Source: an uncultured delta proteobacterium (lineage in GTDB: Bacteria; Myxococcota_A; Polyangia; Polyangiales; Polyangiaceae). From it: DNA of 64,000 nucleotides. This document shows, in pieces, positions 6,499-25,766 of the stretch (position 1 is its first letter; each line of letters starts with the position of its first letter). The position numbers were made by a program, and so were the translations under genes. The stretch covers positions 608,001 to 672,000 of the forward strand of contig CAWKKR010000008.1 in NCBI GenBank assembly GCA_963850305.1, written 5' to 3'. A model generated the notes under the pieces. It did no database searches. It had not been told where the DNA came from and saw nothing but the letters and a program-made list of their open reading frames with translations.

Positions 6499-8576
6499 AT
6501 GGCGACGGGCGGACCTCCAGGCGGTGCTCCGCGGGGGATGGCGCGCGCGAAGGACGCCCCGATGTCGGCGGGAAAGTACGTACTCCTGACCGAGGTGTCG
6601 CGCGGCTACATAGGCGCGTTGTGGCTCGGACGCGACCCGCGGGAGGGCGGCGCCGTGTTCGTGCGCCGCATCGCGCCCCTGGTCTCGTCGAGCACGCGGG
6701 CTGCGGTGCTGGACGCCGCGCGCTGGTCGCAGACCACGGATGAGACGGGCACGACCGAGCTCGTCGAGGGGCGCGCCAGCGTCGATGTCATTTCACGATT
6801 CGGGGATGGCGAGCTCCTGCGTTCCCTGCTCCGCACTGCAGCCTTGAAACACATCGCGGTGGAGCCGACCGTGCTGCTCGGCATCGCGCGTGATCTGCTC
6901 GCGCGGCTGAGTGAACTCCACGCGCAGGCCGCTCGGGACAAGTCGCTGCACGAGTTTGGCGGCGTTCACCCCGACAGTATTTTCGTCGGCGCCGACGGTA
7001 GCGTCCGACTGCTCGACGCGGGCGTGGGAGCGGCGGCATCGGCGCGGGAGCCGTGGCGGAGCGATCCCCAGCGGATCGGCTATTTTGCGCCCGAACAGAT
7101 CGACCTGAGGGGCGTGCTGGGACCCGGCACGGACGTCTTCGCCGTCGGTGTCGTGCTCTGGGAGGCGCTTTCGAATCGTAGGCTCTTCCCCGGAAACGAC
7201 GCCAAGACGACTCGCGAGCGCGTTCAGAGATCGCCGATAACACGACTCGACGCGGTCGGCCGGACCGGTGTGCCGGGCGTGGCGACGGACATTGCCGACA
7301 TCGTGAGCAAAGCTCTGGAGCGGGATCCCGCCGCGCGATTTGGAAGCGTGGCGGAGATGGCCGAAGCGGTCGGCCGACTCGCATGCGCGAACGGCGCCGA
7401 CATCGGGGCATGGGTGGCCTTGCTTGCCGACGCGGCCATCGGGAAGCGCCGGCAGTTGCTCGAGCGCGTCGCAGGCGGCGGGAGTATTCCCCCGCCGTCT
7501 GGGCCGGTCAGCGTCGAATCCGGCGAGCGACGTGAGTCCGTCGATCCCGCCGAGCGCACCGCATCCCGAGGTCGAGGACGGCGAACCGCCCCTGGTCGTG
7601 CGGGAAGAGACGGTGGCTCCGGCGGTGGCGCCCATCGCCGCGGAGTCGACGCCCGAGACGACCGCAACGCCGAGCGGCGCGCCCGTTCCGGATTCCACGA
7701 CAGGCCGTGCGGAGACGGGCAACGCGACGCCCGGAGGCTCAGCTAGCATCGATTTCGACGATCCTCCCGCGAAGAGCGCGAGCGTGAGGTCACCGGCAGT
7801 GGAAGCCGAAACGATCGGCGTGGCCGACGGCAGCCGCGCATCCGCGACGCCGGCCGGCGAGACCGAGAAGACGCCCACGTCTGCAGCGCCGCACAGCGAG
7901 AATCGACCGAACGCCCCCCCCTCCTCCGCCTCCGTCCATGCGCCCTCAGTTGCCACGCGCCCCGCCGAAGCCGAGCCGCGCGCCACGCATCGCGCGCGAC
8001 GAGGACGGCGAGGATGTGCTGACAGCGCCGCGAACGGCGCTCTCGAGTCCCATCCAGACCTCGGCTCTGCATTCGTTGATGGCGCCGGCGCCGCGACGAA
8101 GAAGCGTGCCGCTGCGTGCCGTCACGGCCGTGGTCGTGGGCCTCGGGATGTCCGTGGGTGGCTACCTCCTCGGTCGAGCGCATCCAGTGGTTCAACGCGT
8201 GCCCCTCCAAAATAAATCGACCACTCCCCTGGTCATGGCGAACGGGAGAGCTCCCTCGACGGCCGTCTCGGGCGGAACGGCAACCGCCGTCGCCACGCCT
8301 TCGAGCTCCGAGGCGAACCCCGCGCCTGCACATCCTGCCCCGACGGAGAGCTCGACCCCAGCCCTGCCGTCCGGGGCGCTTCCGTCGACGCCCGCCGTCT
8401 CCGCGACCGCAAGCGCAGCGCCAGCCGTCGCGCCCGTCGCGAGCGCGCCGGACCACGCTGAATCTCCCCGGGAAGCCGCGGCAGCCGCGGCTGCCGCGCC
8501 CAATCACGGACCCTTGCACCGGCCCCCGCCCTCGCACTCCACTGCCAACTCGGCGTACAAACCCGGAGGGATTTGA
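6499..8576 (+). CDS. Ser/Thr kinase-like pseudokinase with TM segment and Pro/Ala-rich tail; two frameshifts (~7505, ~7918)
   Basis: YFAPEQ and DVFAVGVVLWE retained; VHPDSI and DAG replace HRDxKxxN and DFG; protein continues in frames of ORFs 7340.. and 7938..; ends YKPGGI. Confidence 0.75.
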
Positions 8577-9616
8577 ACTTGCTGCGGCCCTCGCCTTTTT
8601 TCGCCATCGCGGTGCTCGCTTGCCTTCCCTCGGTGGCCCTGGGAGCGGGAAAATCCGTCGACGAGGCGACGGCCGCTGAGAAGGCCGAGGCGAGCAACGC
8701 CTTCACGGCGGCGATGGCCAACTTCGACCACGGCGATTTCAAGCAGGCTCTCGCCGGGTTCAAGGCTTCCTACGACGAAGTCCGGAGCCCGAACTCGCAT
8801 TTCATGATCGCGCGAACGATGGCGAAGCTGGGGCAAAACCCAGAAGCTTATGCGGAGCTCGAGGCGGTCGTGACGGAAGCGGACGCCCTGAACGGGCGCT
8901 ACGCGGATACCTCGACGGCCGCGCATGCGAAGATGGACGAGATCCTCCCGCGCATCGGGCTCCTCGTCGTGACGCTCGAAAATGCGCCGAAGGGCACGGA
9001 CGTTCTGGTCGGAAATGACCGCGTCGATCCGGCGCAGCTCGGACAGCCGCTCCCCGAGCTACCCGGGGCGACGATCGTGACCGCCGTCACGCCGACCGGC
9101 GCTAGCTATCCGCACAAGGTCACCCTCGTAGCGGGAGACAAGACCACCCTGCCGATCGACATCGCCGCGGATGCCGCCGCCGCGGCCCCGGCTGCACCAA
9201 AGACATCGCCGCGAACGCATTACCGTGTCGAGATCGAGGGCCACGTCATGGGCGAGACGCTAGGACCGCAGTCGGCGACGCGGGGAGCGGGTTTCGGGGC
9301 GCTCGCGGCGCTCGAGCTCCTGCACACGGGGGTGTTCGGGTTGGGCGACAGTTTCGCGGTGGCCGCCGGGCTCGACTGGAGCGCGACGAGCACGGATCCA
9401 CACTTCTGGATCCCCGTCCTCGCGCAGTGGAACGTCTGGCTCTTTCCGGCGCTGAGCTTCCGCCTCGAGCCGGGCGTGGCCATGCTGACGGGAGCGGGAA
9501 CGCGCGTCACGCCCGCGCTCTACGCTGGGCTACGGTATCAGGTCTACAAGCGCCTCTGCATCACGGGTCGCGTCGGTATTCCAGGAGCGACGATCGGCGC
9601 GTCGCTGCTGCTGTGA
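8573..9616 (+). CDS. Secreted TPR + PEGA-like protein with C-terminal beta-barrel-like region
   Basis: Signal peptide, TPR-like FKQALAGFKASY...SPNSHFMIAR, PEGA-like beta region; 4-nt overlap with the kinase. Confidence 0.75.
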   Translation: MNLLRPSPFFAIAVLACLPSVALGAGKSVDEATAAEKAEASNAFTAAMANFDHGDFKQALAGFKASYDEVRSPNSHFMIARTMAKLGQNPEAYAELEAVVTEADALNGRYADTSTAAHAKMDEILPRIGLLVVTLENAPKGTDVLVGNDRVDPAQLGQPLPELPGATIVTAVTPTGASYPHKVTLVAGDKTTLPIDIAADAAAAAPAAPKTSPRTHYRVEIEGHVMGETLGPQSATRGAGFGALAALELLHTGVFGLGDSFAVAAGLDWSATSTDPHFWIPVLAQWNVWLFPALSFRLEPGVAMLTGAGTRVTPALYAGLRYQVYKRLCITGRVGIPGATIGASLLL

Positions 9617-10573
9617 GGACGGCCGTCCTCGCGCCGGTTCTTCTTTCGGCCACTCTCGCGTTCGCGATTGCGGTGGTTCGCGGCAATCACGGCATCCGGA
9701 CGACGCGCTACGAAGCGACACGGATTCGCGGCAGCGTATTTCCCGAAATCGCTCGACGACGGGCACCGGGCCACGATCCTCGCGCGGCCACCGAAGCGGA
9801 TTGCCTCTCTGACGGTGACGACGGACGAGATCCTCGCTTGCATTGCCGACCCCGGGCGCATCGTCGCGGTCACGCCGTTCGCCGACGATCCGGCGATCGA
9901 GTTGACGGCAGGACGCGCCCCACCCGGCGCGGCGCGTGTCCGCGGCGTCGACCCCGAGATGCTCATCGCGCTGGAGCCGGATCTGGTGTTCGTCTCGAAC
10001 TTCACGCTCGAGTCGGGCGTGGAGATCCTGTCGGCGGCGTCGATCCCCGTGGTCAGGTTACGCGACACCCGATCGTACGACGACGTCGCGAGCAACGTGC
10101 TCCTCGTCGCGGACGCGCTCGGCTACGTCGGCCGCGGGCAGGCGCTGGTCGCCGAGATGAGAGCGAAGCTCGGCGCCCTTCGAGCAAAGACGGCCGCGCT
10201 CCCGGCGCCGCGTGTCCTTTATTACTCCGCCGTGGACTACACGGCAGGAACGGGCACCCTGGTGGACGAAAAGATCCGTCTCGCGGGAGGGCGGAACGTC
10301 GCCGCCGAGGCGGGCCTCGTGGGATTCGAGAGCGTCGCGCTCGATCTGCTCATCGCGCTCGACCCGGACGTCATCGTCGTGCCGCAGTGGTCGGCGAACG
10401 AGAACCCGACGCGCACGCTGACGGAGAGCGCTGCCTGGCGAGACGTCAGCGCCGTCCGCAACGACCGCGTCTATGCCGTGTCGGCGGCCGCGCTCACGTC
10501 CGAGTCGCCCGAAGGCGTCGCGGGCGTCGAACGACTCGCGCACTTGTTCCATCCCGAGGTGTTCCGGTCGTGA
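9613..10573 (+). CDS. ABC transporter substrate-binding protein (BtuF/FecB family); frameshift ~9742
   Basis: PKRIASL...DEIL, EMLIALEPDLV, AGGRNVA, LIALDPDVI, WRDVSAVRNDRVY; signal peptide lies in another frame from GTG 9613. Confidence 0.85.
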
Positions 10574-11607
10574 CCCGCCGCGCGCCCGCCGCGATTCTGG
10601 GAACCGGCACGGTCGCCCTCGTCGCGTTCATGCTGCTCGGCGTGCAATTCGGCGCCGCTCACGTGGGGGTTGGAAAGCTCGCCGCCGTGGCCGAAGCCGC
10701 GATCGGTATGTCTTCGCATGCCGCATTCCGGCCCTGGGAAGCGACCATCCTGCTTTACGTGCGCTTGCCGAGAGTCGTGACGGGCGCGTTCGTCGGCGCG
10801 GGCCTCGCCATCACGGGTGCGGCACTCCAGGCACTGTTCCGGAATCCGCTCGCCGATCCCGGGGTTCTCGGGGTGGCCTCCGGCGCGTCGCTCGGAGCGG
10901 TGACCGCCATGCAACTCGGCCTCGCGTCCGCGACGGCATGGGCAATCCCCGGCTTCGCCGTCGCGTTCGCGGGCGGAACGGCCTTCGCGATCTATGCCAT
11001 CGCGTCGCGCCGCGGGCACCTCCCGGTCGGCACCTTGCTGCTCGCGGGCGTCGCGCTCGGCAGCCTCGCGAGCGCGCTGACGACCCTCCTTCTGTCCGTC
11101 TCGCTCGAAGAATACGACCGCGGTCGCGAGATATTCCGCTGGTTGATGGGGGGCCTCGAAGCGCGCACGTGGAGCGACGTCTGCCTCGTCGCTCCGGCGA
11201 CGCTGGTCGGCTCGGTAGTCGTGCTCGCGTCGTCGCGAGAGCTCGATGCGCTGCTGCTGGGCGAGACCGAGGCCGTCGCGCTCGGGGTGGACGTGCCTCG
11301 CGTCCGGCGCCGGCTCATCTTCGCCACTTCGCTGATCGTGGGCGCCGCCGTCGCCGTGTCGGGCGTGATCGGTTTCGTGGGCCTCGTCATTCCGCACCTC
11401 GTCCGCCTGTTCATCGGACCGTCGCACAGCGTGCTCTTGCCGGCGTCGGCCGTCTTCGGCGCAGCCTTCGTGGTGGGCGCCGATCTCCTGTGCCGGACGG
11501 TCGTCGCGCCCGAGGAGATTCGCCTCGGCGTGATGACGGCGAGCCTCGGCGCGCCGTTCTTCCTGTTCTTGCTCTTGACGCGGAAGCGGGAAATATCCAT
11601 CGAATGA
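10570..11607 (+). CDS. FecCD/BtuC-family ABC permease
   Basis: RLPRV, LQALFRNPLADPGVLGV, LGETEAVALG, GVIGFVGLVIPH, LGAPFFLFLL. Confidence 0.93.
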   Translation: MTRRAPAAILGTGTVALVAFMLLGVQFGAAHVGVGKLAAVAEAAIGMSSHAAFRPWEATILLYVRLPRVVTGAFVGAGLAITGAALQALFRNPLADPGVLGVASGASLGAVTAMQLGLASATAWAIPGFAVAFAGGTAFAIYAIASRRGHLPVGTLLLAGVALGSLASALTTLLLSVSLEEYDRGREIFRWLMGGLEARTWSDVCLVAPATLVGSVVVLASSRELDALLLGETEAVALGVDVPRVRRRLIFATSLIVGAAVAVSGVIGFVGLVIPHLVRLFIGPSHSVLLPASAVFGAAFVVGADLLCRTVVAPEEIRLGVMTASLGAPFFLFLLLTRKREISIE

Positions 11608-12434
11608 CGTCGCTGCTCGAGTGCCGCGACCTCGCTTTCGCGTACGGTGACCGACCCGTCCTCGACGGCGTGACGCTCTCGCTGGCGCGCGGCGAGCTGG
11701 TGGCGCTCGTCGGCCCGAACGGCGCGGGAAAGAGCACGTTGCTTCACGTCCTTCTCGGGCTCCGGCACGTCGAGCGCGGCGGCGTGTTCTCGTCGGGGGA
11801 ACCCCTCTCGTCCCTGTCCCGGCGCGAGGTCGCCCGCCGGATCGCGTTCGTCCCACAGGAGACGCGCAACGACTTCGACTTCACCGTCCGCGAGCTGGTC
11901 GCGATGGGGCGCATGCCGCATCTGGGTCGCTTCGAGCCCGAGCGCAGGACCGACGTCGAGGCCATCGAGCGCGCGCTCGAGCTGACCGAGACGCGCCGGT
12001 TTTCCGACCGCACCCTTTCCGAGCTCTCGGGCGGCGAGCGCCAGCGAGTCCACATTGCACGCGCCATCGCCCAGGAAACCGACGTTCTCCTTCTCGACGA
12101 ACCCACGGCGAACCTGGACGTCGCGCATCAGCTCGAAGTGATGTCCCTCATTCGAAGGCTGGTGCGCGCGGGGAAGGCCGCGGCCATCGCGCTTCACGAT
12201 CTATCGCTCGCGGCGCGCTTCGGGGACCGTATCGTCGTGCTCGGCGAGGGCCGTCTGGTTGCCGACGGAAACCCGGCAGACGTAATCACGGAGCCCATGC
12301 TCGAGCGATATTTTCGCATCCGAGCGCGCATCGAGCGCGACCCGGTCGACGGCGGGGTCCTGGTGGTCCCGCTGTCGCCGCTGGCGGCTCCCGAGCTCGA
12401 GAGCGAGCGAAGAAAATCCGCCGGCGTGCTATGA
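11604..12434 (+). CDS. ABC ATP-binding protein (BtuD/FepC/HmuV family)
   Basis: GPNGAGKS, LSGGERQR, LLLDEPTANLD, LHDL. Confidence 0.95.
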   Translation: MTSLLECRDLAFAYGDRPVLDGVTLSLARGELVALVGPNGAGKSTLLHVLLGLRHVERGGVFSSGEPLSSLSRREVARRIAFVPQETRNDFDFTVRELVAMGRMPHLGRFEPERRTDVEAIERALELTETRRFSDRTLSELSGGERQRVHIARAIAQETDVLLLDEPTANLDVAHQLEVMSLIRRLVRAGKAAAIALHDLSLAARFGDRIVVLGEGRLVADGNPADVITEPMLERYFRIRARIERDPVDGGVLVVPLSPLAAPELESERRKSAGVL

Positions 12435-12449: not shown

Positions 12450-13541
12450 ATGGCCGGACGAGACCAGCGCGAGCACGTGAGGGTGGACGCGTCTTTTCGC
12501 GTCCGCTCCACCGCGCTCGATCCGGACGCGCTGTGGGGAGGCAACGTCTCTCGCGGCGGCATCTTCGTGAAGACGACGCGCTTCCTGCGCATGAACGCCG
12601 TGATCCGACTGTCCATCGAAGCTCCGGAAGCGGGCATCGCGATCCCCGCGACCTGCCGCGTCGCGTTCATACGGGACGCCGCGGAGGCGGTGACCTCCGG
12701 CAAGCCCGCGGGCATGGGACTCGAACTGCTCGACCTCGCCGAGCGCGATCGCCCCATGCTGGAGAAGCTCCTCGCGGGACGACACTCCAAAGAAACGACG
12801 CCGGCGCCCCCTGAAGCTCCGGAAACGTTGCGCGTCGTCGTGGTCGACGATGACGCGCGCTATCGCGAGCTCGCGGCCGAACCCTTCCGGAAACGCGGCG
12901 ATACCGTGTACGCGACCTCCGACGGCCTCGAAGCGCTCGCCCTCTGCATCAAGGACCCGCCCGACATCATTCTGAGCGACGTGCAGATGCCGCGGATGGA
13001 CGGGTGGCAGCTGCTGCGGCTGATCCGTGCTCGCCCCGCGCTTTCCGGAGTGCCCGTGGTGTTCCTGACATCGCTCGGCGGCGAATCGGAGCGCCTCCTC
13101 GGCTATCAGCTCGGCGTGGACGCGTATCTCCCGAAACCGTACGACCCTGCCGAGTTGCTGGTACGGGCGCATCAGATTGTCCGTCGCGCTCGCGCTTCCG
13201 AGAGCGCGCGGTCGTCGCGGACCACGTTGCGCGGCGAGATCGAACACGTGGGACTGTCGTCGCTCCTCACGTTCCTCGAGATCGAGCGGAAGACCGGCGT
13301 GCTGCTCGTCATCGGCAACGACGTCTCGCGACTCTTCTTCTCGGGCGGGCGCCTGCTTCGCGCGGAAGTGGAAGGCGGTTCCGGCGAGTCGCCGAGAAAA
13401 ACGGCGATGCGGGTGCTGGACGCGACCAGCGGCCAGTTCGAGTTCACCTCCGAGGAAGTGAACCCCGAGGATCAACTCGGGACGTCGGTGACGGCGCTGT
13501 TGCTCGAACACGCGCACCTGACGGACGAGCGGAAGCGCTGA
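12450..13541 (+). CDS. PilZ + receiver + DUF4388-like signalling protein
   Basis: REHVR...NVSRGG; VVVDDD...SDVQMPRMDG...KP; LRGEIEHVGLSSLLTFLEIERKTG. Confidence 0.88.
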   Translation: MAGRDQREHVRVDASFRVRSTALDPDALWGGNVSRGGIFVKTTRFLRMNAVIRLSIEAPEAGIAIPATCRVAFIRDAAEAVTSGKPAGMGLELLDLAERDRPMLEKLLAGRHSKETTPAPPEAPETLRVVVVDDDARYRELAAEPFRKRGDTVYATSDGLEALALCIKDPPDIILSDVQMPRMDGWQLLRLIRARPALSGVPVVFLTSLGGESERLLGYQLGVDAYLPKPYDPAELLVRAHQIVRRARASESARSSRTTLRGEIEHVGLSSLLTFLEIERKTGVLLVIGNDVSRLFFSGGRLLRAEVEGGSGESPRKTAMRVLDATSGQFEFTSEEVNPEDQLGTSVTALLLEHAHLTDERKR

Positions 13542-13624
13542 AAATGGCTCGTGCCGTTGACACCGCGGCGCACCCGAGGCTACTGCGATGTGCATGAGGT
13601 AGCCGCAGCCGAAAATATCTAGAA

Positions 13625-13799
13625 TCGTTCAGCTGCCCATTCAGGGCATAAAAGGGAAGCCGGTGCGAAGCCGGCGCGGTCCCGCCACTGTAAGTGGGAA
13701 GGTTCGAGCATCGACGCCACTCGACACGTTCGGGGAAGGCTGCTCGGAACCGCCGGGGGAAACCTCGAGACCCGCGAGCCAGGAGACCTAGCTGAACGA
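13625..13799 (+). ncRNA. Cobalamin (B12) riboswitch
   Basis: AAAGGGAAgccGGTGcgAAgCCggcGCggtCCCGCCACTGTAA, GCCACT, GGGAAGGC and B12-box GAGCCAGGAGACCT; closing helix TCGTTCAGCT (13625-34)/AGCTGAACGA (13790-99). Confidence 0.95.
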
Positions 13800-13860
13800 A
13801 GGGCAGCTCGACCCGCGTGGAAACGGGTGGCTCACCCGAGCTCTCTATGGAGTTTCGTGT

Positions 13861-13893
13861 GACCCCTCGTTCCCGCTGGTCGAGGGGTTTTTT
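13861..13893 (+). terminator. Intrinsic terminator (riboswitch attenuator)
   Basis: GACCCCTCG-N11-CGAGGGGTT stem with a 6-T run, between aptamer and first ORF. Confidence 0.8.
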
Positions 13894-13962
13894 CGTTCAT
13901 GGGGAACGGAGAGCCCGGCTCCCGATTGGTGCCGTCGAAAGAACGGCCCAGTGGAGACGAGC

Positions 13963-15430
13963 ATGAAACTGAATGACAAGTGGTATGGCCAGGTGCTGTT
14001 TGCAGTCATCGCCGCGAGCGCGCTAGCCGCGCCCGCCTGCAGTTCGTCGGACAAGAAGCAGACGGGAGCCGATGCCGGCGCGAACGATGCCGGAGCTGGA
14101 GGCCAAGCAACGGGAGCGGGAGGCTCAGCCGGCAGCAGCACTGGGGGGGCATCGACGGGAGCGGGAGGCTCGGCCGGCAGCAGCACCGGGGGTGGATCGA
14201 CGGGAACCGGAGGTGCCCGGGCGTACGTCGATGCGTCCACGGACGCTTCTGATGGGGCAACCGTCACGCAGCCGGACGACGCGGGGCCGAGCGCCGCCTC
14301 GACCCTTTGCGCGGGAGCCAGCAGGCCCGACGCGGGCACGGCGCCGCACGTACTTCTCGTCGCGGGAACGGATTACGTCACCACGACGGAAACGGCCGCG
14401 ATCGATCTCGACCACGGATGTGTCCTTGGCCGAAGCTCCGTCGCGGATGGCGACGCGATCGCCGCGACGAGCTCGGGCCGCGGTTTCACCCTCGAGCGCA
14501 GCAACGGCGCGCTCGACGTACTGGCCGCGAACGGAGCGGTCGAGACCCGCATCGATCTCCACACCGACGATGGCGGACCGACCTACCTGGACCCGCACGC
14601 CGTCGTCGTACCCGGTCCGGGCTCGACGAAAGCTTACGTTGCGCTCTTCGGCGGCGACGGCATCGCCGTCGTGGATCTCGCCGGGAAGGCCGACGCGCAC
14701 ACGATCGATCTGTCGTCGATGGTCGCTTCGAACGACGCGGACGGGTCCGCGGACGCGGACGGCGGCTTCTACGACGCCGCCACCGGACGCGTCGATTTCG
14801 TCCTCGAGCGCATCGATCAAACGACGATCGCGCCGCCGAACTACGAACTTGCTTGCCCGACCGTACCGGCGGAGCTCATCGCCATCGACCCCGCGAGCGA
14901 CTCGCTGATCGATCTCAACGGCGCGAGCGCCGGAGTGGGCATAGATCTGACGCTCGTGGCGCCGACGGACATCGCCGTGGACGCGACGAATCGCACTCTC
15001 TACCTTGCAGACAACGGGTGCTTCGCCGGCCCTGACGGCGGAGCCGTCCGCGTCCATCACGGCGTGGAAGCCGTGAACCTGGACACGCTGCAGGCGCGCG
15101 TCGTGTACGCGCCGACGACGCAGGATCTCGTCAACGGGCTCGTGCTCCTCGGCTCCGACTCGAGCGCGCTCGACACTTACGACACGCTCTACGTCGAACA
15201 CTGGACCCTCCTCGACACGACCACGGGCACACTCGGCGCAGCGCTTGCCGGGGTCCCGCAGGGCGCGGTCGCGGAGAGCCCCGGCTCGATTCGTCGGCGT
15301 CAACGTCGTGGACCAGGTGCGCGCGGAGGTCGTCCGCTATTCCGTCGCGACGCAGACCTCGACGATTGTAACCGAGCGTCCCTGGTCGACGCTCGTCACG
15401 GGTGTGTCGAACACCGCGGTCCTCCGGTGA
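13963..15430 (+). CDS. B12-regulated lipoprotein, probable beta-propeller (YncE-like); frameshift ~15290
   Basis: Lipobox APAC, G/S/T linker with 45-bp duplication, DPH...KAYV...TIDLS blade-like pattern; C-terminus in frame of ORF 15245..15430. Confidence 0.75.
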
Positions 15431-15434
15431 CCCG

Positions 15435-16307
15435 ATGACGCGGTCGCGAACGTGGGACCTCTCGATCCTTCATGGCGCGGCGCGCGCGACGCCGATGTTG
15501 CTCCCGCTCGCGCTTGCTTCGTGCTCGTCCAGTCCGGCCGTCCACGAGGACGCCAGTCGCATCGCCCGCGACGCTTCTCCGGACGCCCTCGTGAACGACG
15601 CCGGAGCTGCCGACGCCGCCGCCCACCGAGCGCTCGACGGCGCGGAGTCGCTTTCACCGGAAACGGACGGCGCGATCAGGGATGCGGGCTCGTTTCCGGA
15701 GTCGGACGCCGCGACAGGCGATGGCGGCTTCGTGTGCCACGGACCTGGCGCTCGTTTCGCGACGGGCGTGATCGGACATCAGTGGGGGCCCGGACAGGAC
15801 ACGGGACAGAATCTGTTCCCGACGCCCGTGCTCGGACCGCCGGAAGGCGGCGGCGCGTGTCAGGGATCGACCGACACGATCTCTCTCGGCAACGGCGGAT
15901 GGATCGCGCTCGAATTCGCGGGCAACGAGATCGTGGACGGGCCGGGGCCGGACTTCATCGTGTTCGAGAACCCCTTCGAGATCGACTGCGACCCGTCGAA
16001 CATCTTCGCGGAGCTCGGCACCGTCTCCGTGAGCGAGGACGGCGTGACGTGGAAGGACTTTCCGTGCACCGCGACGCAACCGCCGTACGGCCTCTGCAGC
16101 GGGTGGCACGTCGTCTACGCGAACGCCGAGACCAACACGATCGATCCGACGGACCCGGCCGTCGCGGGCGGCGATGCGTACGACCTGGCGGACATCGGCG
16201 TCCACGTCGCTCGCTACGTCAAGGTCACCGATCGGCCAGACCTGGTCGGAGAGAACGGCGTGTACGATCTCGACGCGGTGAGCATCGTGCATCCGATGTG
16301 CCCGTGA
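15435..16307 (+). CDS. B12-regulated cell-surface lipoprotein
   Basis: Lipobox LASC; SLGNGGWI, GPGPDFIVFENPF, ELGTVSVSEDG, GGDAYDLAD, YDLDAV motifs. Confidence 0.8.
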   Translation: MTRSRTWDLSILHGAARATPMLLPLALASCSSSPAVHEDASRIARDASPDALVNDAGAADAAAHRALDGAESLSPETDGAIRDAGSFPESDAATGDGGFVCHGPGARFATGVIGHQWGPGQDTGQNLFPTPVLGPPEGGGACQGSTDTISLGNGGWIALEFAGNEIVDGPGPDFIVFENPFEIDCDPSNIFAELGTVSVSEDGVTWKDFPCTATQPPYGLCSGWHVVYANAETNTIDPTDPAVAGGDAYDLADIGVHVARYVKVTDRPDLVGENGVYDLDAVSIVHPMCP

Positions 16308-18283
16308 CCCGGAAGCTCGCCTCGATGGGCGCCCGTCGCGGCGCGGCTTGCCTGGTGCTGGTCGCGACGGCAGCGCGAGCCGCAGATGCGCCGCCGACCG
16401 ATGACGTCGTCGTACACGGCGCGCGACCGGCGGCAGGCCCGCGCGACGACACGGCCGCGTCCACCGTCGTTGCCGGAGAAGCGCTGGAGGCACCCGGCAC
16501 GAGCTCCGCGGACGTCCTCGCGCGCGTGCCCGGCGTCGAGGTCTCGCGCACGGGATCCTCGTCGGACCTGGCGACGGCGGCAATCCGCGGCGCGACCAGC
16601 GCCGAGACCCCTGTGTACCTCGCCGGCATCCGGCTGAACGACGACGTCACGGGTACGGCCGATCTGTCGACCATCCCGCTGTTCATGATCGATCGCGTCG
16701 AGGTGTACCGTGGCAACGCCCCGCTCGCCGCCGATCGGCTCGGCATCGGCGGGGCCGTCTTTTTCGAACCCCGGTTCCCGTCGAAGACCCAGGTCACCGC
16801 GGGGCTCGGCGCCGGCAGCTTCGGCGAGCGCGCAGCGTGGGCGACGGCCGCGGCGGGGGACGACCACGCGGCGGCGCTCTTCGCCATACGACACGACGGT
16901 GCCGAGAACGATTTCCCTTATCGCGACGACGACGGCAACGTGCTCACGCGGCACAACGCGGACTTCGAGGCGACCGATGCCTGGGCCCTCGCGCGCTTCA
17001 GGTTCGACGACGGGATCCGCGTCACGGCCCTCGCGCATGCGTACGACCGCGATCAGGGCTCGCCCGGTGTGGCTCCGCTCGAGAACGACGCGGCGCGCAC
17101 TCGCGTCGAACGACTTCAGGGCGCAGTCTCGGCGCGCATCCCGTGCGGACACGACGCGGCAGGCGTCGAGAGCTGCGCACTGGAACTCGTCACGAGCGGC
17201 ATTCACGCGACCTCCGTCGTGACCGACCCGCTCGGGACGCTCGTCGGCGGACCCTTCGTTGCGACGACCGGAGAGCGGCTCGAACAAGAGGCACGCGTGA
17301 CGGCACGCGCAGGCGACGCGTGGACGTTCGGCGGCTCCGCGGTCGTCTCGGACGAGCACATCGACCTTGCACGACCGTCCGCGACGACGCGCGCGGGCCG
17401 CATCACCCTGCGCCCCGCGGCGACCGCGTCGTTCCGCCCGATCTCGACCACGGAACTGGTCGCTACCGGGACGGTCGAGTGCCACTCCACCGCGTCCGGC
17501 GACGAGAGCACGAGCGCGTGCCCGTCGCCCGAGCCGTCCGGTCGCGTCGGACTGCGACAGACCCTCGGCAGTGCCGCCGAGCTGCGCGGGAACGTCGGTT
17601 ACTACGTCCGTGTCCCGACCCTCGGCGAGCTCTACGGCGTCTCCACCGTGGTCCGCGGCAATCCCGCCCTCGTCCCCGAGTCGGGCGCAACTGCTGACCT
17701 CGGCGTCCACGCGCACGGCGAAGCCGGACGTCTCGGCCTGAACGCGGACGTCTTCGGCTTCGCCCGGAGCGTCGAAGATCTCGTCGCATACCGGCAAAAC
17801 GTCCTCGGCGTGATCGTGCCTTACAACGTCGGTCACGCACGCGTCCTCGGCGCGGAGATCGCCGCGAGCGCCAACTGGTCGCGCTTCGTGCGCACCGAGC
17901 TCGCCGCCACGCTCATGGACCCCCGCGACACGACCCCCGATCGCACCGTCGCAAACGACATCTTACCGTTCCGGTCGCGACTCGTGCTCTCGGACTTCAC
18001 GGAACTCTACGCCGAGGACGGGGTTCCCCGGTTCGGCGTGAATCGAGCCTCCATCGGCGTTCGACTCACCGAGCGGACGTCGCGTTACGCGGATGAAGCC
18101 GGGCTCATCGTCATTCCCGAACAGACGATCTTCGACGTGGAAGGGTCGCTGCACTTCTGGAACCGACGGCTCGCCGTGCGCCTCGCCGTGCGCGACGTCT
18201 TCGACGCGCGCGAGGTCGACGCAATCGGTCTTCCGCTCCCCGGTCGCGGCGCGTACGCCAGCCTGGAGGCTCGGGTCCCATGA
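16304..18283 (+). CDS. btuB: TonB-dependent receptor, probable cobalamin receptor
   Basis: Plug motifs DVLARVPGV, AIRG, DLSTIP..IDRVEVYRG; PTLGELY, GNPALVPE, LPGR; downstream of a B12 riboswitch. Confidence 0.85.
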   Translation: MTRKLASMGARRGAACLVLVATAARAADAPPTDDVVVHGARPAAGPRDDTAASTVVAGEALEAPGTSSADVLARVPGVEVSRTGSSSDLATAAIRGATSAETPVYLAGIRLNDDVTGTADLSTIPLFMIDRVEVYRGNAPLAADRLGIGGAVFFEPRFPSKTQVTAGLGAGSFGERAAWATAAAGDDHAAALFAIRHDGAENDFPYRDDDGNVLTRHNADFEATDAWALARFRFDDGIRVTALAHAYDRDQGSPGVAPLENDAARTRVERLQGAVSARIPCGHDAAGVESCALELVTSGIHATSVVTDPLGTLVGGPFVATTGERLEQEARVTARAGDAWTFGGSAVVSDEHIDLARPSATTRAGRITLRPAATASFRPISTTELVATGTVECHSTASGDESTSACPSPEPSGRVGLRQTLGSAAELRGNVGYYVRVPTLGELYGVSTVVRGNPALVPESGATADLGVHAHGEAGRLGLNADVFGFARSVEDLVAYRQNVLGVIVPYNVGHARVLGAEIAASANWSRFVRTELAATLMDPRDTTPDRTVANDILPFRSRLVLSDFTELYAEDGVPRFGVNRASIGVRLTERTSRYADEAGLIVIPEQTIFDVEGSLHFWNRRLAVRLAVRDVFDAREVDAIGLPLPGRGAYASLEARVP

Positions 18284-19560
18284 AACGCGTCTCACTCACC
18301 TTGTGCCTCGTCGCGTGCAACGTGCCCGTGCCGCACGGCTCTCACGGAGTCACGATTGACGGCGGCGCGGATGCGTCCAGCTCGAGGGACGGCTCCGCCG
18401 GCGCGTGCGGCCGCGGCATCGTGGTCGTCGAGCAAGGGAGCGGGTTCGCATCGACCAACGTCGGCCTCGTCGCTGCCGACGGCACCGTGCTGTCCGGTTC
18501 GATCGCGTCGAGCGCAACGGCGTCCGTCGGGCTCTCAGCGCCGCTCAGCGGCGACGTCGTCCCTCCGACGGATCCGGTGCTCGGCAGCGAGATTGTCCTC
18601 ATCGATCAAGCTCAAAGCACCAACCGTATCGTCTGGGTCGACGTCGCGACCGCCGCGCGCCGCACGCTCTCCGTCGAGACCGGCTTCTGGTCGGATCCTT
18701 CGGACTATGTCCAGCTCTCGCCGCACAAGGCGTACGTCCCCCGCCTGGGTCAGAACGCGACCCCGGGCGAGCAACCCTTCGACATGGGGAGCGACGTCCT
18801 GGTCGTCGATCCGACGTCGCTCGCCGTCACGGGTTCCATAAATCTGCGTCCGGCACTCGGAAGCGACGCCTCGGACGCGCTTCCGGACGCAAACAAGATC
18901 ACCGTCGTGAAAGGCCGGGCCTTCGTCCTGCTCGGGGCCCTGGCTCCGGAAACCTTCTCGGCGAGCATCCCCTCGCGTCTCGTGACGCTCGACGTGGAAA
19001 CGGATGCCATCACGAGCGTCCTCACTCTCGACGGCTTCGAGAACTGCACCGGCCTCGCGACGTCTCCTTCCCAGAATACACTCGCGATCTTCTGCTCTGG
19101 CGAAGGCAGCATCCAGAACGATCCCACGGACGTCACGGGCTCCGGCATCGTCGTGCTCGACATCTCCGGCACCCCGCGGATGACTTCCAGCATCCCCGCG
19201 GCTCGCATCGGCAACAATCGTGTGGGCTTCTACGGCGACTTCGCGTCGGAAGACGCGCTCGTGGTCCAGACCTTCGGCTACACCGACGCTACCTCGGGCG
19301 TCACTCTCTCGACGGACACCCTGAATCGCATCGAGCTCGCGACGGGCACGTCCGAGCTCGTCCTAGACGGCGATCCGTTCACGATCGGCGGAGTGGCCTG
19401 TCTGCCGGATTGTGGCACGTGCTTCGTCGCCGACGCCGGTCGACAGGGCGGGATCGTGCACCGCTTCGCCCTCGACGCGGCCGGCGAGCTCTCCGACGAC
19501 ACGCCCATCAAAGTCGAAACGAACCCCGGATTGCCCCCGCAGACGCTCGGCAAGTTCTGA
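18280..19560 (+). CDS. Second B12-regulated beta-propeller-like lipoprotein
   Basis: Lipobox LVAC; DPSDY..SPHKAYV...SINL; translationally coupled to btuB. Confidence 0.8.
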   Translation: MKRVSLTLCLVACNVPVPHGSHGVTIDGGADASSSRDGSAGACGRGIVVVEQGSGFASTNVGLVAADGTVLSGSIASSATASVGLSAPLSGDVVPPTDPVLGSEIVLIDQAQSTNRIVWVDVATAARRTLSVETGFWSDPSDYVQLSPHKAYVPRLGQNATPGEQPFDMGSDVLVVDPTSLAVTGSINLRPALGSDASDALPDANKITVVKGRAFVLLGALAPETFSASIPSRLVTLDVETDAITSVLTLDGFENCTGLATSPSQNTLAIFCSGEGSIQNDPTDVTGSGIVVLDISGTPRMTSSIPAARIGNNRVGFYGDFASEDALVVQTFGYTDATSGVTLSTDTLNRIELATGTSELVLDGDPFTIGGVACLPDCGTCFVADAGRQGGIVHRFALDAAGELSDDTPIKVETNPGLPPQTLGKF

Positions 19561-23880: not shown

Positions 23881-24297
23881 ATGACCCTACCGCCCTCCGA
23901 AGCATCCAGCGACGCCTCCGCCGTGGAAGAACGCATCCTCCGCACCTGGACGCCCGTGCTCCTGCGCGGCATTCTCGCGACGTCGATCACCCTCATCGTG
24001 ACCGGCCTCGTCTCGATGGCGGTCCGCGTTCCTGGTGACTACGTCGAGCACTACGAGCGCGTCAAAGCCGGACATCTCCATCAGCGGGAGCACGTCCTCG
24101 ATCTTTTGGCCGGCGCCGCGCACGGCGACCCTTACGCCCTCCTGGCAACGGGCCTCTTCGTGCTCACGCTCGTCCCCCTCGCCCGGGTCGTGTTCTGCTT
24201 CCTGCTATTCGTGAAGATGCGGGACCTCACCTACGTCCTCTTCACGGCGTACGTGCTCCTGGGGCTCGCAGTGGGGATCGTGCTCGGACAGGTGTGA
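23881..24297 (+). CDS. DUF1634-like membrane protein
   Basis: LLRG...GLFVLTLVPLARV; usual partner downstream of this TauE subfamily. Confidence 0.8.
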   Translation: MTLPPSEASSDASAVEERILRTWTPVLLRGILATSITLIVTGLVSMAVRVPGDYVEHYERVKAGHLHQREHVLDLLAGAAHGDPYALLATGLFVLTLVPLARVVFCFLLFVKMRDLTYVLFTAYVLLGLAVGIVLGQV

Positions 24298-24444
24298 GCG
24301 GAGATCGCGCCACCTCCGCGGCATTTCACGGAGTGACTCGGCGAGCGAAGACGGTGCAGAAGGAAGGCCCTGACGAGCGCCGCGAAACCCGCGCGCGTTT
24401 CGATCGGGACGCCGCTCTGCGCGGCCGCTATCGTGTCGGGTCCC

Positions 24445-25766
24445 ATGCCACCGGAAGGCTTCGATTGCGTCATCGTGGGCGCGCGCTGCGCGGGAGCGCC
24501 TCTCGCGACGCACCTTGCTCGTGCGGGGATGCGAGTGTGTATGCTCGACGCGGACAAGATCCCGAGCGACCAGCCCTTTTCCACTCACGCCATTTCGTCT
24601 CTCGGCATGGATCTCCTGGACGAGCTCGGCGTCGGAGAGAAGATCCGTCGCGTCGCGCCCATCGTGCAGAGAGGGCGCATCGCCGTCGGCTCTGCCGTCG
24701 TGGACATGCCGCTGCCCGAGAGCCGGGCCATGTACTGTCCACGGCGTTCGGTCCTGGACCCGCTCCTCAGCGAGGCCGCGACCTCCGCCGGCGCGGTGCT
24801 CCACGACGAGACTGCCGTGCTCGACGTGATCCGGGAAGGCGAGCGCGTCGTCGGCGTTCGCGCCAGGCACGGCTCGGGGACGCGCGAGATCCGCGCGCGC
24901 GTCGTCGTGGGCGCCGACGGACGAAACTCCACCATCGCGAAGCGCGTCGGCGCGGGGGAGTATCACGCCGCCGACGGCGAGCGCGGCGGGTACTGGACCT
25001 ATTTCCGATCACGAAGAAATTCAGCGATCTGCCGTTTCAGACCAGCATCGAGATCAACGGCACGAGCGCCCGCTTCGCGTTCCGGACGGACTCGGACCTC
25101 GTCATCGCGGGCGCGCTGGATCGCCCGAGCGTGGCAAGGGGATGGGCGAAGGACCCCTGGCCGCACGTCATGGCGTCGCTCGCGAGCTCGAGCACCTTGC
25201 GTCACCTGGTCGAGAACAACGCGCCCGCGTCTCGATGGATCGGGATCTTGAAGGGGCACTGGTATTTCCGGGAGCCTGTCGGTCCGGGCTGGGCTCTCGT
25301 CGGTGATGCCGGCCTCCACAAAGATCCGACGCCTGGCTACGGCATCACCGACGCGCTCCGCGACGCGAAGGCGCTCGGCCGCGCCATCCTCGACGGACGC
25401 GAAGCCGCGATGGAAGTGTACTGGCGGCGGCGCGACGTCGAGTCCCTCCCCTTTTACGAGAACGCGCTCCTCATGGGGGCCCTCGACTACGACAATCCCC
25501 TGAACGAGCTCATCCTGTCGAAGGCGAGCGAGAGCCCCGCGATGGTCGACCGGCTCCGGCTCACGTTCGAGCGCAAACTATCGCCGTTCGACGCAATCCC
25601 TGCGTGGCGAGTGCTCGCCTGGGCGGGCGGCGCGCTCGTGCGCGGAAAGACCGAGATCCTCCCGCACCTCGCGACCGCCATGCGGCGAAACGCGCGCGTT
25701 CAAAAGGAGCTCGCGATCCGACGCACCCTGCTCGAGCGCGCCGAGGCGACGCTCGCGGCGTCGTGA
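24445..25766 (+). CDS. FAD-dependent oxidoreductase/monooxygenase; frameshift ~25005
   Basis: VIVGARCAG, VVGADGRNS, then in the next frame LVGDAGLHKDPTPGYGITDALRDA. Confidence 0.85.

Follow-up and report, generated by a model that had tools for sequence, protein, structure and literature searches.

The operon described here most likely encodes a B12-repressed unit for the capture and import of cobamides, of the Btu type known from Bacteroides and located in a member of the Myxococcota; we assign this reading a probability of about 0.78. The operon lies in an uncultured myxobacterium, within a window of 64 kb (the whole stretch of DNA that was analyzed), and consists of a cobalamin riboswitch followed by genes for lipoprotein A, lipoprotein B, a TonB-dependent transporter (TBDT), and lipoprotein C. 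In the proposed model, scarcity of cobamide would lead the riboswitch to permit the operon to be read. Lipoprotein C would act as a lid on the TBDT, as in the predicted complex, while B, a BtuH-type protein standing by itself at the end of a long flexible tether, would bind cobamide and pass it to the lid. Lipoprotein A would be a second, accessory propeller, likewise with a long tether; as its gene is usually controlled by a separate riboswitch and has no tie to a TBDT gene, its role would be comparable to that of BtuK or BtuJ. All three lipoproteins would presumably be exposed at the cell surface, with hand-over running from B to the lid.

Operon structure and regulation

The features of the region are as follows:

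9668-10573, 10570-11607, and 11604-12434, + strand: btuF-, btuC-, and btuD-like ABC cassette (PF01497, PF01032, PF00005)
13614..13809, + strand: cobalamin riboswitch aptamer (RF00174; cmscan 105.8 bits, E 1.8e-25)
13807..13893, + strand: probable expression platform (alternative pairings, from folds)
13963..15430, + strand: lipoprotein A (lipobox Cys26, Gly/Ser/Asp-rich linker, putative beta-propeller paralogous to C; frameshifted)
15435..16307, + strand: lipoprotein B (lipobox Cys30, disordered linker, modeled BtuH-type beta-sandwich domain at residues ~101-290)
16304..18283, + strand: TBDT, BtuB-like by context (Plug PF07715 and barrel PF00593)
18280..19560, + strand: lipoprotein C (lipobox Cys13, modeled seven-bladed beta-propeller, predicted BtuG-like lid of the TBDT)

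The original prediction placed a B12 riboswitch ahead of a tightly coupled operon, and both points were borne out. The aptamer, which covers model positions 1-189 (full length), scored far above the RF00174 gathering score of 31.5; it was the sole Rfam match within the window, and a genome-wide Rfam check found no RF00174 match elsewhere in the source genome. The genes for B and the TBDT overlap by 4 bases, as do those for the TBDT and C, and the ATG of B starts 4 bases past the true end of A (15430). A Pfam search placed none of the three lipoproteins in any family. A simple lipobox pattern test (not SignalP) was passed by 18 of 22 members of the A family, 85 of 119 of the B family, and 56 of 61 of the C family, as compared to 2 of 190 internal segments used as a control.

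The riboswitch probably acts by transcription attenuation. A terminator-like hairpin (13861-13889), with a T run after it, competes with a candidate antiterminator, in which 13807-13813 is able to pair with 13878-13884, and a comparable alternative pairing was observed behind the riboswitch at two loci of the same genus. On folding, the hairpin reached -18.2 kcal/mol, with z -1.1 alone and z -2.6 for a long form. A terminator scan missed this hairpin 3' of the riboswitch, and a sigma-70 promoter scan returned no match.

Lipoprotein C and the transporter

The structure model of C is a seven-bladed propeller (pLDDT 91), and its closest structural matches support a BtuG-like identity, in agreement with the expectation of a BtuG counterpart. 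The first 14 matches listed by Foldseek (ranks 1-16) belonged without exception to BtuG1-3 or to 3dsm, the homologue from B. uniformis; the best (E 9.8e-13) stood above other propellers, and structures of XusB appeared at rank 22, behind BtuG by about four orders of E-value. VIA likewise gave BtuG as best match, and its alignment to BtuG3 had Z 31.1 and rmsd 3.1 with 313 aligned, a score to be read against the Z of 29.6 reached by an archaeal YVTN propeller, since seven-bladed propellers score high mutually.

At the level of sequence the relationship is remote. Searches of the PDB with C as a single sequence, with a close profile, and with a broader profile gave no BtuG match, the broader profile finding only DFPase-type propellers (E 9e-4 or weaker); no Pfam match to DUF5074 (PF16819) was found in C or anywhere in the genome. 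Only a joint profile of A and C reached BtuG1, as its first PDB match (E 5.4e-5), and C is thus best regarded as a remote homologue outside the BtuG sequence family. An Asn-Pro motif of the C family aligns with Ser131-Pro132 of BtuG2, a corrin-contacting position if full-length numbering is assumed; Ser131 was the sole corrin-binding position of BtuG that could be mapped onto C, where the family has Asn and the protein in the window Asp139. At conserved polar positions this protein departs from the family consensus with Q110 for R and T129 for Q, and further with D139 for N and D203-A204 for R-P. We consider it quite probable that C binds corrinoids.

The best NCBIfam model for the TBDT was TIGR01779 (B12 receptor), at 101.7 bits as compared to a cut-off of 599.7, and the BtuB equivalog NF007926 scored 82.7 against a cut-off of 836. 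Its putative B12 role rests on the riboswitch and the neighboring genes, not on membership in the BtuB equivalogs. When residues 74-659 of the TBDT and 13-426 of C were modeled together, C was placed on the transporter, as expected of a BtuG counterpart, with an ipSAE of 0.84 (best of three controls, 0.00), a score that may echo memory of solved structures because a solved BtuB-BtuG complex exists. Agreement in contacts between prediction runs was 82% or more, partner pLDDT was 85 or more, and the ipSAE mark was attained by 116 of 157 solved pairs and 2 of 215 mismatched pairs. The predicted interface takes in the anchor segment of C (13-18) and TBDT segments 451-455, 496-501, 546-560, 592-606, and 638-644, which would be long loops 7-11 of the outer face when strands are counted back from the C-terminus. 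As predicted, C would cap the TBDT as a lid.

Lipoprotein B

As modeled, lipoprotein B is a stand-alone BtuH-type domain, in line with the proposed BtuH counterpart. Its best matches among 48,161 chains were two BtuH domains, BtuH2 (7biz; Z 13.7, rmsd 2.8, 161 aligned) and the H-domain of BtuG1 (8blw; Z 12.7), with the next unrelated chain at Z 9.2; the fold is also like that of CBM32 modules (Z 8-9). Foldseek alone gave no E below 0.001, yet BtuH2 stood at rank one. Single-sequence and close-profile PDB searches with B gave no useful match, and a B profile gave 8blw_B as its sole match (E 0.016). Two of the 150 best distant relatives of B (P0268 and P0333) carry a C-like propeller fused to the B domain, the layout of BtuG1. 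Against NF033170 (LIC_13355), B scored 39.9 bits (cut-off 120), with E 2.8e-10 over its core.

Residues N179, F181, E193, D278, and D280 are conserved in 97-99% of 145 diverse sequences. On alignment to the BtuG1 H-domain, N179 and E193 (98-99%) fall at its GNA and AEPG motifs. The phosphate/metal site of BtuH2 was compared at Asn399, Glu406, Ser582, Glu584, and Asp522; by position only, D278 and D280 may correspond to Ser582 and Glu584, and no counterpart of Asp522 was identified in B. For the corrin-contacting residues Tyr510, Trp511, Trp577, and His476, judged by conservation across the 145 sequences, no highly conserved aromatic set stood out. On balance B is likely to bind corrinoids.

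Lipoprotein A

The motif shared by A and C had been taken as a sign of paralogous propellers, and profile comparison strengthened the case: BLASTP found 25% identity over 145 aa (E 0.004), and two profile-profile comparisons scored 98.7% and 99.6% (the latter by HHalign, E 1.8e-24, 309 columns). Judged by its sequence, A is a paralogue of C and probably a propeller. Its PDB profile matches are propellers, led by glutamine cyclotransferase (E 5e-7), with weak matches to BtuG3 and BtuG2 (E 5e-4 to 3e-3) and no BtuK structure among them. In the Atlas, A is equally near XusB and DUF5074, and XusB clusters (0.90-0.92) are found among the neighbors of both A and C. The odds that A itself binds corrinoids we place slightly better than even.

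The gene for A is frameshifted near 15285-15292, probably through an assembly error. The last ~46 residues of its homologues match another frame, which stops at the TGA at 15428-15430, and the GC3 signal changes frame at the break; the tail of the 491-aa open reading frame was rejected as real protein on these grounds. One DNA run (share 0.09) had no coverage of the break.

Distribution among relatives

The association of these homologues with B12 riboswitches and transporters, which the original prediction implied, was found repeatedly. Among 79 C loci of the order, the TBDT gene adjoins C in 51 and lies within 4.5 kb in 55, and a sense riboswitch lies within 5 kb upstream in 52. The TBDT is lacking at 24 of the 79, with a riboswitch still present at 12 of these; the remaining 12 have neither. 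Beyond the order, 19 of 20 loci have a TBDT beside C and 14 of 20 a riboswitch. Within the source family, C has a strong match in 27 genomes, every one of which carries the matching TBDT clade (in one case as a fragment at a contig edge); in the 11 genomes whose TBDT is only a more distant one, C has no strong match. No locus was confirmed when named genomes were scanned with protein C.

Of 40 loci with lipoprotein A, 37 have a cobalamin riboswitch immediately ahead of its gene, mostly at a site away from any TBDT; six weak riboswitch calls at A loci were submitted to Rfam and all six were confirmed. The picture of three lipoproteins around btuB consequently stands for the layout in the window and not for A as a fixed member of the operon, since A is a separate riboswitch-controlled gene in most relatives inspected. 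At the 12 best B-anchored loci, A is adjacent in six and B has its own riboswitch in four more. A count placing all 42 B genes within 1 kb of A, C, or the TBDT was set aside because the loci had been chosen around A or C.

Genomic context

The ABC cassette upstream is likely the inner-membrane step. The best NCBIfam models for its permease and ATPase were corrinoid/B12 ABC models, below cut-off; the cassette is without a riboswitch of its own, and among related loci a btuC-like gene is found close to C in 22 of the 79 within the order and 10 of the 20 beyond it. Two other neighbors were rejected as parts of the system, a response regulator (12450-13541) with no fixed position beside C among 80 loci and a TPR-like gene (8573-9616) that recurs in 1 of 80. 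The genome carries MetH and methylmalonyl-CoA-mutase-family genes (B12 enzymes) and a weak MetE-like match (E 6.7e-9). The synthesis markers CbiC and CobS were not found in it, and from its gene content the organism seems unable to make the B12 cofactor; the genome is 94.8% complete, so that absent synthesis genes are no proof of auxotrophy.

Alternative explanations

Import might be the work of the TBDT and lid C only, with A and/or B being non-binding, B12-regulated lipoproteins of a structural, adhesive, or chaperone nature. We consider this improbable, in spite of the CBM32-like aspect of the B fold, its weak match to LIC_13355 (a reported laminin and plasminogen binder of Leptospira), and the example of BtuK2 of B. 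thetaiotaomicron, a Btu-locus propeller without cobamide binding. Against it stand the riboswitches directly preceding A (37/40 loci), the presence of A or a separate riboswitch at most of the best B loci, and the retention in B of residues aligned to the BtuH phosphate/metal site.

An arrangement in which the lipoproteins face the periplasm from the inner leaflet of the outer membrane, where they would buffer corrinoids or hand them over between the TBDT and BtuF rather than serve as surface lids, appears more improbable again. It would fit the description of an export signal for lipoproteins that only Bacteroidota have, the confinement of most known lids to Bacteroidota, and the frequent separation of the A, B, and C genes from the TBDT gene; the predicted interface, on long loops assigned by inferred numbering to the TBDT's outer face, argues for the opposite orientation, that of BtuB-BtuG. 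We give least credence to a B12-regulated unit whose cargo is something else, be it cobalt, a metal chelate, or no more than cobinamide-type precursors, and in which C functions in the manner of the siderophore lid XusB. Cobalamin riboswitches also control cobalt transporters, the TBDT is far under the BtuB cut-offs, and XusB is a near neighbor of both propellers. Nonetheless, BtuG outranks XusB in the structural search, B12-binding domains are the best matches of B, the ABC cassette in the neighborhood comes closest to corrinoid models, and a genome in which CobS and CbiC were not found would gain little from cobalt or precursors.

The cobamide capture and import unit that we favor could also be part of something larger, a tentative and rather doubtful extension. 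The Myxococcota might operate an extracellular cobamide relay of their own, made up of several proteins, in which the TBDT is lidded and lipoproteins reach the cell surface by a route outside Bacteroidota. The lid gene would have been duplicated, C staying with the transporter and A becoming a transporter-independent, tethered catcher with its own riboswitch, paired with B; such catchers could be shed on vesicles or shared between cells, harvesting cobamides from lysed prey or neighbors. For prey as the source of the cobamides, which the original prediction raised as a possibility, the analysis found evidence neither for nor against, and it was rejected as a supported claim.

Significance

BtuG has been described as found only in Bacteroidetes (PMC6143338; 10.1101/2024.02.16.580637) and BtuH as predominantly from Bacteroidota (PMC13616437); why TBDT lids are tied to Bacteroidota has been raised as a question, with the guess that lipoproteins of this kind cannot be exported by other diderms (10.1101/2023.03.17.533168). 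A literature search on BtuG- and BtuH-like proteins, on Myxococcota with cobamide, TonB, or lipoprotein, and on Sorangium B12 uptake, in which few subscription papers were covered, found no description of such a system; the sole paper found to contain both BtuG and Myxococc* refers to Myxococcota solely in connection with DUF4465/BtuJ. The present results suggest that lid-assisted B12 scavenging, so far known mainly from gut Bacteroides, is also used by myxobacteria, the complete unit of riboswitch, BtuH-type, TBDT, and BtuG-like genes being common across the myxobacterial order and extending to other orders of the phylum. If this is true, a function can be named for three unannotated protein families, surface-lipoprotein export and lid-assisted transport become testable in myxobacteria, and soil and water myxobacteria would be strong competitors for cobamides. 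A known mechanism would thereby be extended, rather than a new one revealed.

Comparison with known systems

The match of B to LIC_13355 of Leptospira is a weak profile match over the B core, well under the cut-off; PMC11891782 treats LIC_13355 as a host-matrix adhesin, with no link made to B12. With the accessory lipoproteins BtuK1/BtuK2 and BtuJ (PMC13616437, PMC13398666), A shares its status as an extra riboswitch-controlled lipoprotein beside a core pair. BtuK, a seven-bladed propeller with its own riboswitch, is found together with BtuH1, an arrangement resembling that of A and B. Unlike BtuK and BtuJ, A is a paralogue of C, the predicted lid, and has no PKD domain; DUF4465/BtuJ was not found in the source genome.

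BtuH is known as the stand-alone BtuH1, as BtuH2, and as the H-domain of BtuG1/BtuGH (PMC8941943, PMC13616437; PDB 7BIZ). B shares with these the fold, the SLG-x-GG, N-x-F, and E-x-G motifs, and the character of a lipoprotein adjoining a TBDT or propeller, with propeller fusions among its relatives. It differs in its smaller domain (~190 aa), disordered tether, 16-20% identity, and a conserved Cys211/Cys221 pair, and the corrin-contacting Tyr, Trp, and His of BtuH2 have no evident conserved counterpart.

The closest parallel to the transporter and C is offered by the lid complexes that BtuB forms with BtuG in Bacteroides thetaiotaomicron (PMC6143338, PMC10404256; PDB 8BMX, 8BLW, 8P97, 8OKV). 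The host phylum is different, C has 13-16% identity to BtuG without a DUF5074 match, its family has an invariant Cys256/Cys272 pair, and the TBDT is not a BtuB equivalog member. Whereas btuG is described as always beside btuB, 24 of 79 loci have the C gene and the TBDT gene detached from each other. In common are the cobalamin riboswitch, a TBDT adjoining a seven-bladed propeller lipoprotein, and, in the predicted complex, the lid position itself, with the lipid-anchor segment of C touching the barrel.

Operon structure and regulation

A full-length cobalamin riboswitch (RF00174, 105.8 bits) precedes the operon, as the original prediction had proposed. It was the sole RNA family that Rfam identified in the window and the only RF00174 match in the whole genome (6.26 Mb in 11 contigs, 94.8% complete). 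The features of the locus are as follows:

9668-12434: btuF/btuC/btuD-like cassette (Pfam and NCBIfam matches)
12450-13541, + strand: gene with PilZ, response-regulator receiver and DUF4388 domains, between the cassette and the riboswitch
13614-13809, + strand: cobalamin riboswitch
from 13963, + strand: lipoprotein A, 3' of the riboswitch
15435-16307, + strand: lipoprotein B
16304-18283, + strand: TonB-dependent transporter (TBDT), plug and barrel domains
18280-19560, + strand: lipoprotein C, last of the four genes behind the riboswitch

The tight coupling proposed for these genes is borne out by their common strand and by 4-base overlaps at B/TBDT and TBDT/C; the PilZ/response-regulator gene is not a fixed neighbour in related loci. 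Just 3' of the aptamer, the RNA can form either a terminator-like hairpin followed by a run of T or a competing antiterminator pairing, an alternative echoed in two loci of the same genus, and attenuation is a plausible mode of action. Pfam returned no match for A, B, or C. Each carries a lipobox, as do most of their homologues (A 18/22, B 85/119, C 56/61; control 2/190). Named homologues came from Polyangiaceae, Sorangium, and Minicystis; the nearest Atlas clusters were unnamed Myxococcota proteins. The best NCBIfam models for the TBDT were B12 receptors, at scores far under the cut-off.

The genome encodes MetH, eight TBDT barrels, and four methylmalonyl-CoA-mutase-family matches, and has a MetE-like match that is weak; CbiC, CobS, and DUF4465 were not found in the 94.8% complete assembly. 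This gene content fits a cobamide scavenger, with the caveat of an incomplete genome.

Lipoprotein C and its predicted complex with the transporter

Lipoprotein C was modeled as an all-beta propeller (AlphaFold2, 62 sequences; pLDDT 91, pTM 0.90). In a Foldseek search with this model, each of the 14 entries listed for ranks 1-16 belonged to BtuG1-3 or was 3dsm, a homologue (best E 9.8e-13). Next came a YVTN propeller from an archaeon (4.8e-10), and XusB appeared at rank 22; the expected resemblance to BtuG was recovered. The fold is only moderately specific for BtuG, since in VIA-align the YVTN propeller reached Z 29.6, as compared to 31.1 for BtuG3 (rmsd 3.1, 313 aligned). Sequence and profile searches of the PDB with C alone did not reach BtuG. 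A joint A and C profile ranked BtuG1 first (E 5.4e-5), with the remaining BtuG entries (E 0.009-0.026) interspersed with unrelated propellers.

When C (residues 13-426) was predicted together with the TBDT (74-659), the complex scored 0.84 while the top-scoring of three controls reached 0.00, with at least 82% of contacts common to the runs and partner pLDDT of at least 85. Among solved pairs, 116 of 157 attained the mark used for such scores, as against 2 of 215 among mismatched ones; these counts are only rough with the alignments used here. Because BtuB-BtuG has already been solved, the pass indicates likeness of the modeled pair to that complex rather than binding; C as a lid on its receptor is a prediction. 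The predicted interface takes in the C anchor segment 13-18 and several TBDT loop segments, which by count would be outer loops 2, 3, 4, and 7-11; according to the available text, loops 2 and 11 of BtuB2G2 hold the linker in place (PMC10404256).

The window's C departs from its family consensus at positions 88-96% conserved (R110Q, Q129T, N139D, RP203-204DA). D139 aligns, in the joint profile, with Ser131 of BtuG2, described in the portions available as a corrin contact (PMC13616437; 10.1101/2024.02.16.580637). Such changes of polar positions possibly reflect altered ligand preference or relaxed selection, judging from the alignment.

Lipoprotein B, a BtuH-type domain

In the model of B, the first ~100 residues were disordered and the core confident. 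In a structural comparison with 48,161 chains, BtuH2 came first (Z 13.7, rmsd 2.8, 161 aligned), the BtuG1 H-domain second (Z 12.7), and a CBM32 next (Z 9.2), in agreement with the proposed kinship to BtuH. The sole PDB match of a diverse B profile was again the BtuG1 H-domain (E 0.016), in an alignment that pairs SLG-x-GG, N-x-F, and E-x-G motifs. Residues N179, F181, E193, D278, and D280 are 97-99% conserved (145 sequences). According to the available parts of two sources, Asn399, Glu406, Ser582, Glu584, and Asp522 of BtuH2 hold Na/Ca at the B12 phosphate (PMC8941943; PMC13616437). Through the BtuG1 alignment, N179 and E193 would be equivalent to the first two of these; the equivalence of D278/D280 to Ser582/Glu584 is putative, by position only. 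No strongly conserved set of aromatics stands out in B to match those that contact the corrin in BtuH2.

The B family counts 1,782 representatives at E 1e-10. Several of the best 150 relatives have added Ig-like domains, and two fuse a C-like propeller to the B domain, the layout of BtuG1. The B core also matches the Leptospira LIC_13355 family (NCBIfam NF033170), published as an adhesin, but weakly and below threshold. On this sequence resemblance, that family may likewise bind B12 in the manner of BtuH; the parts available of PMC11891782, PMC3493377, and PMC3953431 draw no link between LIC_13355 and B12.

Lipoprotein A

The window's A gene is FRAMESHIFTED, with a change of reading frame near its 3' end: it aligns with its homologues up to ~15291; their last ~46 residues match another frame at 15290-15427, ending in TGA at 15428-15430, and the GC-rich third codon position changes frame there too. 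The break is more likely due to an indel in the assembly, because 7 of 84 conserved genes of the assembly break likewise in a crude genome-wide test. The one public sequencing run located has no coverage of this position. Elsewhere in the window, an FAD-dependent oxidoreductase-like gene is split over two frames (24294-25766 and 24433-25251, + strand), likely by another such indel.

The paralogy suggested for A and C holds: the two families are homologous across most of the domain (profile-profile, 99.6%, E 1.8e-24), and their shared motif coincides with the stretch of A that matches BtuG3 in the PDB. The PDB matches of the A profile were propellers (glutamine cyclotransferase first, then BtuG3, a YVTN protein, and BtuG2). 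The Atlas placed an intact A homologue near XusB and DUF5074 clusters (0.91-0.92).

Genomic linkage in relatives

The order sample comprised 201 Polyangiales genomes, among them the window's own and G123, which is unpublished and supports no other claim made here. At E 0.001, C matched 172 of them, many by weak cross-matches; the TBDT profile matched 189, B 134, and A 70. For C, 80 stretches from 76 of the matching genomes were picked, with preference for long contigs and a range of families; one was left out since its match proved to be an A gene. Riboswitches were called in relatives with an nhmmer profile, which had no match on resampled sequence and one in the window's genome; an Rfam check confirmed 6/6 weak calls, and 2/2 negatives stayed negative.

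The TBDT adjoined C on the same strand in 51 of the 79 loci and lay within 4.5 kb in 55. A sense riboswitch lay at most 5 kb upstream of C in 52 (42 of the 69 outside the training set) and was present in 12 of the 24 loci without a TBDT. Either element accompanied C in 67 loci and neither in 12; B was also found in 16, A in 5, and a btuC-like gene in 22. Across the phylum, 66 of 151 sampled genomes had a C match, which was strong in 24 genomes outside the order; at loci from 20 of these, the TBDT adjoined C in 19, with a riboswitch in 14 and B in 10. The linkage turns up in many families and under varied gene orders, although kin are not independent. Within the window's family, by hand reading, 27 of 39 genomes held a strong C, and each of the 27 had a TBDT of the close clade, in one case as a fragment; all 11 genomes with only a more distant TBDT were without a strong C.

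For lipoprotein A, 40 loci were inspected in 38 genomes out of the 70 that matched, leaving out six loci already met near C. A riboswitch lay directly upstream in 37, B nearby in 15, and a TBDT in 1; with the six restored, a TBDT was nearby in 6 of 46. The expectation that homologues track with riboswitches or btuB-like receptors was therefore confirmed for C (67/79) and A (37/40). At the best 12 B loci, A adjoined in 6, B had its own riboswitch in 4, and neither lay within 1.5 kb in 2. The order A-B-TBDT-C recurred behind a riboswitch in two loci (L032, L060), by coordinates in genome G009, and in L144, where both the TBDT and the propeller are more distant.

Several other arrangements were observed. 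In seven loci of one family (L057, L058, L059, L065, L073, L074, L097), the TBDT and C follow a riboswitch each, in the tandem order riboswitch-TBDT-riboswitch-C, and a divergent btuCDF-like cassette accompanies them. In L034, L035, L056, and L076, a C detached from the TBDT keeps its riboswitch and adjoins genes that, from their translations, are methylmalonyl-CoA-mutase-like or cobQ/cobS/cobO-like. Strong C homologues in L033, L036, L038, L041, and L042 have neither element nearby, and their genomes hold the TBDT elsewhere, often beside B; in L033 and L041 they adjoin selB-like genes and tRNA-Sec. In other orders of the phylum (L114, L118, L120, L125), the interval from the riboswitch to B/TBDT contains further unannotated lipoproteins of ~320-760 aa, candidate cobamide accessory proteins.

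In L172-L175 and L144, the TBDT belongs to a second, more distant clade, and a propeller gene comes after it. Of 7 such distant TBDTs inspected in the window's family, 5 have an A/C-type propeller other than C on their 3' side. Because the propellers in four of L172-L175 and L144 score better with the A profile than with the C profile, A may have originated as the lid of a different TBDT clade.

Proposed mechanism

We interpret the operon, with a probability of roughly 78%, as a unit for cobamide capture and import. Low cobamide would turn the operon on through the riboswitch. C would cover the TBDT at the cell surface, take up the corrinoid, and hand it inward, A and B would act as accessory binders on long tethers, and the BtuFCD-like ABC system would finish import.

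One rival view is that A, B, or both are not binders, which seems unlikely to us. The lipoproteins might instead reside in the periplasm, which we regard as quite improbable; that an operon behind a cobalamin riboswitch serves a cargo other than cobamide is less probable still. Cobamide capture and import by the lidded transporter remains our preferred reading.

Comparison with known systems

Lipoprotein partners of TBDTs outside Bacteroidota include TbpB and HpuA of Neisseria, and lipoprotein help to TBDTs is therefore not new in itself. The proposed working of the operon is like that of the Btu relay of B. thetaiotaomicron. C lies outside the DUF5074 sequence family and the TBDT outside the BtuB equivalogs; both are remote homologues or counterparts. 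Lids on TBDTs have been considered nearly confined to Bacteroidota, with ElpS as the exception (Price 2023, 10.1101/2023.03.17.533168). In the portions available of each source, BtuG was called exclusive to Bacteroidetes from BLAST of 313 gut genomes (Wexler 2018, PMC6143338) and likewise restricted in a 2024 preprint (10.1101/2024.02.16.580637), BtuH was assigned mainly to Bacteroidota, plus three Firmicutes (Putnam 2022, PMC8941943; 2026 review, PMC13616437), and BtuJ/DUF4465 was already known outside Bacteroidota, including in Myxococcota (PMC13398666). Our literature search found no account of this myxobacterial system; supplementary homologue lists may include such proteins.

The folds of B and C, the paralogy of A and C, and their linkage uphold the original prediction of a myxobacterial counterpart to BtuG/BtuH, in which the lid is predicted and corrinoid binding would follow by likeness. 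It is well supported that lid-assisted B12 capture extends to a second phylum by way of three unannotated families, and the least familiar feature, when compared with the known systems, is the detachable second propeller, A.
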